A stretch of 64,000 nt of DNA from Octopus vulgaris (taxonomy: Eukaryota), in assembly GCA_951406725.2 (NCBI GenBank), contig OX597821.1:51336001-51400000 (forward strand), given 5' to 3'. The number at the start of each line of letters is the position of its first letter. Within the stretch, counting starts at the first letter, position 1. The notes below the pieces were generated by a model, which made no database searches, had not been told where the DNA came from, and saw only the letters and a list, made by a program, of their open reading frames with translations. Shown piece after piece: positions 14,334-59,505 of this stretch. A program made the position numbers and the translations under genes.

Positions 14334-14793
14334 TTAGGCCGTCAACTATGAAATTTGTAGAGAAGAAAAAAGTTTGCTAATGTTTTATAAATACAAGGAA
14401 TAGTTGTATTCATCAAAGTATGCACCCATATTGTCAATACACTTTTGCCATTTCAGCGGTATCTTGTCCAGCCCGGAACTGTAAAAGCCTGGCAATCTAT
14501 AGTCAATAAAATCTTGGAAGGCCTGTTTTACAGCATTGTCGGAATTAAGTTTTTTTCCTATCATAAAGTTAGCCAAATTCTGGAAGAAGTGGTAGTCAGT
14601 GGGAGCAAAATCAGGTGTGAATGGTGGATGATGGAGAACTTCCAATCCAAATCCTGTAGTTTCGTCTTGTCTTACAATAAAATAGGAGTGGAACTAAGTT
14701 TCTACATCATTTGGCCAAGTTGGCTGCTGTATATTTCGGCTGTGATTGATGAGCCAGGTTTAATGAAATCATAATGAAACACACCTGCGCCAG

Positions 14794-14795: not shown

Positions 14796-14830
<35 letters not shown>

Positions 14831-14980
14831 CATATAAATATATATGTATATATATATGTATATATATGTGTGTGTTTGTGTCTGTGTATGTATATCTATG
14901 TATTTATATATGTAAATATGTAAATATATCTGTTTATATATATGTGTATATATATGTATATATATAATATATAACATATA

Positions 14981-15017
<37 letters not shown>

Positions 15018-15029
15018 TTGCAGGCGGAA

Positions 15030-15465
15030 TGTAAAAAGAAACAAAGAAAATACACACTGGGTATACTTACAAATAAATGATTTGAGGGCAATTAAGAAGT
15101 ATAAACATCATTATAATGAGTCAATTTAGAAAGTCATACCGGTTTCACCATCGCTGTTCACTGACTTTGAATCAACAACATATCTTATAGTGCCTGAGTG
15201 AAAAGATTTCATGCATGGGAGGTGAGCAGTTCTGAATGTCATGCAGTTAAATTAATATGATTAATAGAGGATGAATGGTATATGGGATGTCTGAGAATTA
15301 GTAGGATTATTGGCATTAGTAAGGATAGTAGTGTCCTGTATAAAATTGTGTGTTCATGTTAAGCTGTGGCTGATCATTTATTTGTATATACATACCTTTG
15401 TTTTTTATTAAAAAAGCGTTTACTTTTATTCTTAGTGTGCATTTTCATTCTTTCCTTTTACTTTA
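15030..15465 (-). mobile_element. Small inverted-repeat element with an internal hammerhead, between (TA)n tracts
   Basis: Left gtaaaaagaaacaaagaaaatacacact-gggtatacttacaaataaatga is imperfectly complementary to right tcatttatttgtatatacatacc..agtgtgcattttcattctttccttttac. Confidence 0.6.
15130..15168 (-). ncRNA. Minimal type I hammerhead ribozyme, G3-C8 core variant
   Basis: aaaguca GUGAACA gc-gaug-gu GAAAC CG GUA ugacuuu: perfect 7-bp helix I, 2-bp helix II, palindromic ACCGGU helix III. Confidence 0.7.
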
Positions 15466-15532
15466 CCAAGTGTAGTCTTTTTTCTATTAAATATATGTCT
15501 GTATATATATATATATAATATCTATCTATCTA

Positions 15533-15534
<2 letters not shown>

Positions 15535-15595
<61 letters not shown>

Positions 15596-15672
15596 GTATA
15601 TATGTATATGTATATATATGTATATATATATGTATATATATGTGTGTGTGTATGTATGTATGTATGTGTGTG
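15535..15672. repeat. (TA)n/(TG)n compound microsatellite
   Basis: Direct reading. Confidence 0.95.
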
Positions 15673-17414
15673 TTTTTGTCTGTGTGTACGTATCTGCCAT
15701 TAAATATCAGTTTTCTACTAAGTCTATTAATTTCAAACTCATTTGCCACAACGAATTTCCTTATTATTTCCCAGTATCATTTATGAACTCCCTTCTAAAC
15801 CTGCCTTATCAAATTGCATTTAATTCACTATGCTTTATACTATTGGTTTACACTGTCTAGCATAACAATATGAGAGTCAAGCACTGATGTGTTTTGCAGA
15901 AACTACTTATAACAGCTAATATAATATCCAAGGAATGTTTTTTTTAAAAATAGACGAAATCCTTGAAAGAAATTATTTGTGAATTTTTAAAAATATATAT
16001 TTCTTATCTATTACATTAAACCGAAAATGATATTGAATTGCTCTTTTAAAATGGTCCTTTATACACCTTCTTTATGATGGTAGATTATAAACGTGCTGAA
16101 AGAAATCACCTTCAGATAAACAGCTGTTGTGATTTTAACAGACTTTTTTTTTTCAAGGTCAATGAATCCTCAACAAAATATGTTTTATTTTGTTATCCTT
16201 ATCTTTGTTTGCGTTATAAACATACTGTCTTCAGTCTCATTACTTGTCTCTGATAGTTGTCGATTAAACATTTCAAACATACAGAATGAGGTTCCTCCTG
16301 TTAAATAGTACACTAATTTATGTGTGCTTTCAATTCATTTATCTCTACTCGTATGATAAGTACAGACAGAGGAGTCTCTATTTTCCATTTGTTTGTCAAT
16401 GACAACAACAGATGATCGTCAGTCATTGAATCTCGAGTGTGATTCTCCTTCAAGTCTATATTAATGGGTGATAGCTTGTTATCGGTTGGATAGTGCTGTG
16501 CAGGCAGTAAACACGTGGTTGTTAGCAAATAAATATCTTAGTTGGAACGTATGTTCTCAACACTAACAGTAAGAGAGAACCGTTACGACTGATAATTCCG
16601 AACTCATATCTATATGTGTCTCATTCTATTTTCCTACGAAAAGTACAATATATTAAAAATTTACATAGTTGTTCTTTCGTCACTACCTTACAACTACATG
16701 TTTCGCTAATACAAGGAGAATAAAACCGAAACATGAATATATTTGTCTTTCGTACTTGATGAAATATATAAATTATATAAAAGAGTATTTAGCATTGATT
16801 AAAAATTATTCCTTCGCCGCATAATTATTTCCCAATAGATTTCTTTTCGTCACACTTGCAGTTAACACTAATATTAAATATGTCAAGCAGAATTGACAGT
16901 TCTACAAAATTGACATAACTATTATATGCAGCCCTGTATTGCTAAAATAAGTTAGTTATATTCTATAAAATTATGGATTGCGTCCTTTATCTTTAAATCA
17001 TAATATATTTTACAATATGCTAAATTAGTCATACTAAACAATTTTCTCTTTATTTTCTATAAATCTCGATAGATTTATGAACGCAAGTTTATTCAAAAAT
17101 CGGCCGTGATGAGTAATTAATATGTTCAATATTCGTTATATTTCAATGTCATTCATTTAAATTTGACTTCGTACACTTGGTGAGAATGAAAAATCAGATG
17201 TGTTACAGAGTCTCGTTTTTTGTATGCCTACCTTTCTATTTCCACAAATCTTGAAATAGAAGAGATTTCTAAGCCATGGGAATTCCATTTATGCTTAAAG
17301 AAGGAAAGAGGATATAGATATATAGACATGTATTTGATTTTTAATCCATCGATCTCTACGTATATGCTTATATGTGTGTGTAATAATATATCTTTCGTTT
17401 ATAATTGTTTTTGT

Positions 17415-40819: not shown

Positions 40820-41400
40820 AAAAAGATGGGAAAAACTACAGAAGGCTTGTGTTATATGGTCAAAGAATGTATTTAAGCCGTTATGTCAGAAAAATGTTAT
40901 AAAATGTTGTGTATAGTAACATAGTTTTCGGAGAAATAGCCGGTTTCGTATTTTCTTTTCAAAATTCTTTACCTACATCGTGTCATGTCTTCGCTATGTT
41001 GAAAAATATGGAGTTCCAGGCAGGAGAAGGTAATCAGAGATTCCTCTGGGTATAAGGGAGATAATCAAATATGTTGGGAATGTCTAATTAAACAGGATTT
41101 GGTTTAGAAGGAATAGAAGGAATAGAATGTTACAAGTGGTTAGGTTTTGTTTTAAATTTTTTTCAATAAGGTGAGTTTCCTTATTTAAAAATGTTAGAAG
41201 TGGTTAAGTTTTGGCTTATATTTTTCAATGAAGAAGGTTTCCTTATTTAATCTAACTTGTGTTGGTGTTCGAATGGCACATTGATAGAATGGAAAGATTA
41301 TAAATTGTGGTAGTAGTTGCTTTGCGCATTTCTCAATATGTTCACTAAAGGGTATCATTCTGAGAAAGCAATCTGCTGTCGATGCAGAGTGCATCTGAGT
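40813..41400 (-). mobile_element. 5'-truncated Penelope-like element: GIY-YIG C-terminus plus 3' non-coding region with HHR-like motif, ending at (TA)n
   Basis: ORF 41194-41394 IPFSEHIEKCAK..FIIFPFYQC..RLNKETFFIEKYKPKLN resembles the PLE endonuclease end; HHR-like motif lies downstream at 40932-40968. Confidence 0.8.
40932..40968 (-). ncRNA. Minimal hammerhead, U3-A8 variant, cleavage triplet mutated
   Basis: agaauu UUGAAAA g-aaaaua-c GAAAC CG GCU auuucu (helix I 5 of 6 pairs). Confidence 0.5.
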
Positions 41401-59289: not shown

Positions 59290-59505
59290 AGAAAAACGAA
59301 GAAAAACTACAATATACAAGAAAAAAAACAACAACGCGAGTACGTGGTACATGCAAAATATTAAAAGATGCCCAGAGAAGGAAAGAGAGGTCGTTTAACG
59401 TTTCAAGCAAAGCTCTTCTTCAGAAACAAGAGACAGAGGAATGTCAAAGAGAAAAGGAAGACGGAGTAAAAAACTTGCCAACAATCCACGTGCTGTTACA
59501 TTATA
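59290..59505 (-). mobile_element. Solo PLE terminal-repeat-like fragment hosting the 59391 HHR
   Basis: Strongly purine-biased segment between short TA runs and containing the HHR; boundaries approximate. Confidence 0.5.
59391..59429 (-). ncRNA. Minimal type I hammerhead ribozyme
   Basis: uuguuu CUGAAGA a gagc-uuu-gcuu GAAAC GUU aaacga; all core positions canonical. Confidence 0.8.

Follow-up and report, generated by a model that had tools for sequence, protein, structure and literature searches.

A candidate minimal hammerhead with a G3-C8 core in a Penelope-like retroelement of Octopus vulgaris, and paired changes at positions 3 and 8 among its relatives

INTRODUCTION

Can a hammerhead ribozyme carry, as its natural state, a core pair of inverted polarity, with G at position 3 and C at position 8? 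The catalytically active fold of the hammerhead includes the 3-8 pair, which was reportedly seen there by Martick and Scott in 2006; all four 3-8 pairs are said to have been tolerated in the work of Przybilski and Hammann in 2007, and the variants collected by Lunse and colleagues in 2017 reportedly number about 150,000. The question is raised by a locus in a 64,000-nt stretch of the Octopus vulgaris genome (hereafter the window), in which an initial annotation, made from the letters alone, proposed a compact hammerhead with the core GUGAACA.

Cervera and de la Pena (2014; PMC4209133) described minimal type I hammerheads carried by the pLTRs of Penelope-like elements, and these hammerheads are thought to act as dimers (PMC4209133; review PMC6765202). 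In this study, we analyzed the motif, the element around it and its relatives in the host genome, an AT-rich assembly of 2.8 Gb in 227 contigs.

RESULTS

A hammerhead-like motif on the minus strand

Reading the minus strand from 15168 to 15130, the 5΄ strand of helix I (AAAGUCA) is followed by the core GUGAACA, in which G3 lies at 15161 and C8 at 15156, then by GC-GAUG-GU, GAAAC, CG and GUA, with A17 at 15137, and finally by the 3΄ strand of helix I (UGACUUU). Helix I is a perfect 7 bp, the palindrome ACCGGU occupies 15143-15138, and the cleavage site is predicted between 15137 and 15136. These observations agree with the 39-nt motif, the perfect 7-bp helix I, the core and the GAAAC-CG-GUA order given in the initial annotation, which named no strand. 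The plus-strand reading of 15130-15168 has no hammerhead core and was rejected.

We searched the window using a relaxed hammerhead descriptor that accepts any Watson-Crick 3-8 pair and specifies a 7-bp helix I. The site at 15130-15168 was the only match, and 60 random 64-kb sequences of matched dinucleotide make-up yielded none. The literal CUGANGA consensus is absent, the core being GUGAACA; because the published consensus already allows U3-A8, the missing literal match lowers the case for 'canonical', not for 'hammerhead'. Rfam returned no hammerhead match, either for the whole window at the gathering threshold or for 14900-15600 at E 10, and single-strand folding of the motif gave an ordinary energy (z = -0.14) and thus no signal. 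These null results, together with the inverted ends of the surrounding element, would suit a small inverted-repeat (MITE-like) element in which the motif is a look-alike produced by chance. However, the descriptor found nothing in the random windows, the relatives continue into an RT/GIY-YIG open reading frame (ORF), the inverted arm derives from the 3΄ end of the element itself, and the covariation described below is strong; we consider a chance look-alike extremely improbable.

The region 59393-59427 (minus strand) has a canonical C3-G8 minimal layout with a 4-bp helix I, an extra A after A9 and a 4-bp helix II, and without a helix III loop. No Penelope protein match lies nearby, and 4-bp matches arise in 5 of 60 random windows.

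Table 1. Features of the locus (positions in the window)
Feature	Positions	Strand	Evidence
Main arm: 5΄-truncated 3΄ end of a Penelope-like element	15022..15382	-	79-82% identity to longer copies L003, L009, L030
Minimal type I hammerhead motif (candidate), G3-C8 core	15130..15168	-	Sequence, family alignment, covariation
3΄ end of the element, copied in inverted orientation, tail included, without hammerhead	15373..~15485	+	Opposite-strand match of query 24-118 to the 3΄ ends of other copies; blast
TA-rich microsatellite, left flank	14797..15015	.	Sequence
TA-rich microsatellite, right flank	15496..15680	.	Sequence

The surrounding element and its relatives

The motif lies in an element of ~465 bp (Table 1). 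Its main arm holds the last ~17 codons of an RT/GIY-YIG ORF and the 3΄ untranslated part with the hammerhead; the upstream hairpin is deleted and the last ~30-nt tail is absent. The three longer copies in Table 1 run into the linker and GIY-YIG coding sequence. The inverted part spans ~110 nt; owing to a deletion in the main arm, pairing is still visible over only ~50 nt. A ~435-bp element with imperfect ~50-nt inverted ends, flanked by TA tracts, had been proposed for this locus: the inverted arms are real and the TA tracts are present on both sides, but the element is longer, and its arms represent a 5΄ inversion of greater extent, not terminal repeats. Such an inverted structure is usual for Penelope-like elements. 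A MITE or other terminal-inverted-repeat element was considered and rejected: relatives extend into the RT/EN ORF, their ends are varied, the inversion is specific to the window copy, and no family-wide terminal inverted repeats were found. The left TA tract is the likely insertion target; beside it, 14400-14790 resembles what we take to be a fragment of a mariner-type transposase gene. Endonuclease-bearing Penelope-like elements favor microsatellite targets (PMC8557442).

A DNA search of the genome with the 474-base element gave 315 candidates, 40 of which were scored, at 75-85% identity. At least 13 copies of family A share flanks of >1.6 kb (G000:C17, 44.7-80.0 Mb; L008, L011-L014, L018, L019, L021-L023, L026, L028, L029), which suggests that they multiplied inside a larger duplicated unit; in the tallies, these copies were collapsed to one.

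The family translations contain the linker CGRPNCGTC and the segment NLIYVITC..HYIGQT with both His residues, i.e. a CX4CxxC linker and a GIY-YIG domain with CCHH. Pfam RT and GIY-YIG matches were obtained in the nearest intact relatives, above the cut-off in P0002 and P0003 and just below it in P0001, and two of the family's own fragments gave no Pfam match. Many of the 60 stretches retrieved around pattern matches carry the same endonuclease 150-700 bases upstream. The retrieved copies of the G3-C8 families were broken, and a search for longer proteins gave one match. A metagenome scan for relatives with P0001 produced 109 pattern matches, none of which was confirmed, so that the scan revealed no hammerheads in related elements from other animals.

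By the definitions in PMC8557442, the element is an endonuclease-bearing (EN+) Penelope-like element of the Neptune/Nematis type, which it resembles in its C-terminal GIY-YIG domain with CCHH, its CX2-5CxxC linker, the 5΄ inversion, the one-sided tail and the microsatellite targets. This assignment follows the published definitions and covers both types, the tree being built without named reference elements.

Elsewhere in the window, at 40940-41394 (minus strand), lies another truncated Penelope-like copy belonging to this clade. Its endonuclease end (41191-41394) is 59% identical to P0138; a decayed U3-A8 hammerhead comes after it, at about 40940-40962 (minus strand), and the copy ends in a TA tract.

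G3-C8 as the state of the family

We selected family copies solely on sequence 3΄ of the cut site, and 26 of the 30 copies so chosen still cover the core (five of these 26 cores were read by eye where the script pattern failed). G3 was present in all 26 and C8 in 24, the other two copies being G3-G8 and G3-U8; C3 occurred in none. When the pattern placed no constraint on positions 3 and 8, G3 was found in 39 of 40 exact matches. The expectation that other copies would conserve G3 and C8 was therefore borne out, G3-C8 being the family state in 24 of 26 informative copies. Likewise, the earlier argument that two compensating departures from CUGANGA are not random decay holds up, both in these copies chosen without regard to the core and in the joint change of positions 3 and 8 across families. 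The alignments indicate that the swap arose in the master lineage of a Penelope-like retroelement, not in the window copy.

The G3-C8 families are old, with median identities of 87-95% to consensus and with copies in C3 that are 83-93% alike. Across at least five subfamilies, which differ by 11-26% in their endonuclease DNA, G3-C8 has been retained, and N7, helix I and helix II changed meanwhile. At the family level, A17 is found in all G3-C8 subfamilies.

The window copy differs from its family in helix II (GCGAUGGU versus GCGAUGAC). The family sequence GCGAUGAC forms one G10.1-C11.1 pair plus a C-A mismatch, whereas the window copy forms a G-U pair (G10.1 at 15154, U11.1 at 15147) plus a C-G pair. 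The 2-bp helix II of the initial annotation is thus present in the window copy, but it is derived and not the family state, and the G10.1-U11.1 pair looks like decay. The window copy has also lost part of the hairpin preceding helix I, no second hammerhead adjoins it, and its identity to relatives is 76-85%. Old, solitary and damaged, it is probably inactive.

Positions 3 and 8 change together across sister families

A search for sister family C gave 1,817 candidates, and the 30 retrieved comprised 17 G3-C8, 10 A3-U8 and 3 other copies (position 3 against position 8, Fisher P = 1.2e-7). A further diagnostic site is common to the A3-U8 copies and marks them as a subfamily. When family C copies were instead chosen on post-cut sequence and read by eye (n = 30, three copies being local duplicates), we counted 22 A3-U8, 4 G3-C8, 2 G3-U8, 1 A3-A8 and 1 truncated copy; the two G3-U8 copies could be wobble intermediates or back-mutations. 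Both versions of family C occur in public contigs under four organism labels, where the two changes, with positions counted separately, have like depths (e.g. 132/132 and 123/132 in X19, 579/963 and 502/988 in X6). None of the runs listed is on record as RNA. Contigs of two public runs, which we guess to be RNA and which may hold DNA, cover the motif, but such contigs carry no information on RNA ends, expression or cutting. In family D, all 29 aligned copies (30 retrieved) are A3-U8.

Across the genome, the A/U pattern gave 4,433 matches, compared with 2 in the reversed control. Among the first 100 matches listed (one contig, by eye), 98 were paired (67 U3-A8 and 31 A3-U8), 2 were A-A and none was U-U. 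The G/C pattern gave 307 matches, compared with 86 in the reversed control, and the first 100 listed comprised 51 C3-G8, 35 G3-C8, 11 G-G and 3 C-C. The C3-G8 matches among these come mostly from a 359-bp tandem repeat. Several of the G3-G8 rows were rejected as family D sequences out of register, whose true core is A3-U8. This ~359-bp tandem, retrozyme-like repeat with a C3-G8 hammerhead also has dispersed relatives in sequence that carry U3-A8 (L074, G000:C1:20001500-20005500, and L165-L168), another compensated switch in a separate family.

We aligned 13 representatives. Positions 3 and 8 are paired in 13 of 13 with three pair types (G-C, A-U and U-A), U4, G5, A6, A9, G12, A13, A14, A15.1 and U16.1 are invariant, as is ACCGGU, and N7 varies. 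Double changes occur at all seven pairs of helix I. Helix cells are paired in 94% of cases, compared with 66% after shuffling and 27-42% in slid controls; because the 13 rows, like the consensus rows of the families, share ancestry, the shuffle count does not amount to a probability. G10.1-C11.1 is present in 12 of the 13 rows, the window copy having G-U. In most families helix II is 1-2 bp long; it has 1 bp in the family of the window copy and reaches 4 bp in family C. Among 17 representatives, no family-level 3-8 mismatch was found, and N17 is A, C or U in every one, never G. A further rule, that N17 never pairs with N3, was dropped: it is true for the G3 and A3 families but is broken by U3-A8 families with A17, and, since G3 arose once, it is a hint at most.

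History of the switches

Because a per-copy protein tree was too noisy, we relied instead on family-level trees built from the linker and endonuclease; the DNA tree was built without families U3 and E (low coverage). The G3-C8 clade has support of 98/99 in the protein tree and 100/99 in the DNA tree, and the A3-U8 subfamily C2 is nested inside it. A second A3-U8 group, the pair D+F, is separate from C2 and stands beside a U3-A8 element, and a further clade is U3-A8. A single origin of A3-U8 was rejected (p-AU 4.8e-7). A G3-C8-only clade (p-AU 0.12) and a U3-A8-only clade (P = 0.076) were not rejected, so that the trees favor, and do not prove, an ancestral state and a direction for the family C switch. 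On these trees, at least three double changes at positions 3 and 8 are required, corresponding to about three independent switches, a small number, and G3-C8 arose once.

The single origin and the age of the G3-C8 families would also fit a drifted, crippled state, in which two changes in a declining lineage happen to pair, as would the partial rescue obtained with an engineered G3-C8 core (PMC11167929). We regard such drift as very unlikely: G3-C8 lasted through the five or more diverged subfamilies described above, a later change hit both sides to give A3-U8, and family-level mismatches occur in 0 of 17 representatives.

Copies of the U3-A8 sister family are 99% alike, and the G3-C8 families are older. 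This suggests that the clade still moves with a non-C3-G8 core. The same very young U3-A8 Penelope-like family (L150-L153) is the best source for a functional element of the clade.

5΄ Ends of copies and possible cleavage

We tallied the 5΄ ends of 57 copies, i.e. 60 chosen on post-cut sequence minus two query copies and one reference copy. Two ends fall within 5 nt of the cut site, 3 inside the core, 21 at 27-67 nt upstream, 4 in the 41 bases beyond those and 27 further up. The genomic 5΄ ends therefore show no cut-site footprint (2 of 57), suggesting that the templates were mostly uncut. The pile-up upstream may reflect the start of transcription, or reverse transcription halting at the hairpin. 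In the short copies among L202-L260, the 5΄ ends piled 27-67 bases upstream are often accompanied by a fold-back inverted copy joined at helix I. The ACCGGU self-duplex has a computed energy of -8.3 kcal/mol, and two-copy co-folds give an intermolecular helix III.

The excess of upstream ends over cut-site ends (21 versus 2, n = 57) could mean that the fold is kept for a non-catalytic job, such as binding of an element protein, RNA dimerization or a reverse-transcription signal, and that useful cutting has been lost. The reduction of helix II to 1-2 bp in most families points the same way, as do hammerhead mutants of the anole element, which leave insertion in vitro unaffected (PMC11167929), and the poor cutting of minimal forms in vitro (PMC4209133). 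However, the 3-8 pair belongs to the catalytically active fold, G12 is invariant, and N17 is never G among the 17 representatives. The retention of all three makes selection on cleavage the best explanation, and we consider a purely non-catalytic role unlikely, though less so than drift.

DISCUSSION

Taken together, the alignments and trees make it probable, in our judgment, that the 3΄ repeat of a Penelope-like element in the window carries a minimal type I hammerhead whose family has G3-C8 as its normal state, with likely slow cutting in an ancestor, dependent on a dimer or a protein, and a window copy that is probably inactive. We infer that selection in the master lineage would maintain a Watson-Crick 3-8 pair: the active fold would need the pair and the ribose at position 8, not particular bases, so that the pair could be maintained while its letters change. 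Two copies would pair through ACCGGU and form helix III, cleavage would take place 3΄ of A17, and an active ancestor would have cut the element RNA slowly, in a dimer- or protein-dependent manner. Cutting would be leaky or late, because most inserted copies come from uncut RNA.

The octopus elements resemble the hammerheads of PMC4209133 in their position behind the RT-EN ORF, type I topology, short palindromic helix III, G10.1-C11.1 pair, many solitary truncated copies and predicted dimer action. They differ in the core, since the rows of Fig. S3 in PMC4209133 (supplement parts 1-2) have C3-G8 or U3-A8 and the octopus families discussed here have G3-C8 and A3-U8. They also differ in shape: in PMC4209133 most hammerheads have 4-8 bp in helix II and an additional base following A9, whereas here helix II is 1-4 bp with no additional base, and helix I is 6-7 bp. 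Dimeric hammerhead variants with a diminished stem III were reported by Lunse, Weinberg and Breaker (2017; via review PMC6765202), and the association with Penelope elements and the palindromic minimal stem III are shared features; the alignments of that study may already hold G3-C8 or A3-U8.

A natural U3-A8 core has been published (Perreault et al. 2011, PMC3088659), and another is known from Cercyon of S. mansoni (PMC4209133). Like the octopus switches, the U3-A8 of PMC3088659 is a compensated 3-8 change, and U3-A8 is also the commonest state in the octopus genome. However, it keeps a pyrimidine at 3 and a purine at 8, and G3-C8 and A3-U8 invert this polarity. In the anole Poseidon element, a single C3G or G8C change abolishes cutting and the double C3G/G8C change partly restores it; a protein is needed, and cleavage is dispensable for insertion in vitro (PMC11167929). 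That engineered construct has the same 3-8 core and cuts at a reduced rate, but it is a laboratory product, whereas G3-C8 is the natural state of several subfamilies here. G3-C8 is also said to work less well with C17, in a remark whose data are not given there (PMC3884650). The A17 of the G3-C8 subfamilies fits this remark, but as a hint only, because G3 arose once and U3-A17 occurs.

In the literature examined, G3-C8 appears only as an engineered rescue. Our literature search found natural G3-C8 or A3-U8 unreported, although cores of these kinds may already be listed in Lunse 2017, Przybilski and Hammann 2007 or Arkhipova 2017. Six such cores were also sought in the supplements of Perreault 2011 and gave no match, the control for this search reaching the oligonucleotide table only and not the alignments. 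The available parts of PMC7229834 and PMC6155905 contain nothing on natural G3-C8 or A3-U8, and those of a 2026 octopus repeat paper (PMC13282606) mention Penelope elements and no hammerhead. We give about even chances to the broader proposal that G3-C8 and A3-U8 cores, in about a thousand copies, work in one animal-genome radiation, previously unreported from nature and reached through at least three switches; if the tandem repeat with C3-G8 is included, a single genome would then hold every one of the four Watson-Crick pairs.

The value of these observations lies in the family and not in the window copy: three core pairs in one retroelement clade. They would provide natural phylogenetic support for the 3-8 pair in a polarity known from engineered mutants, and suggest that a retroelement lineage can spread with a pair of inverted polarity as its standing state. 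They also argue for selection on cleavage chemistry in Penelope elements, where cleavage is weak and dispensable in vitro. The matched natural series G3-C8, A3-U8 and U3-A8, with differing N17 and helix II, suits kinetic comparison. Finally, descriptors fixed on CUGANGA would undercount hammerheads. Naiad elements have been reported without hammerheads on the basis of descriptors that included the string cuganga (PMC8557442), and that search could be repeated with any 3-8 pair. If the present reading is true, some elements said to be without hammerheads may carry G3-C8 or A3-U8 cores that CUGANGA searches have missed.
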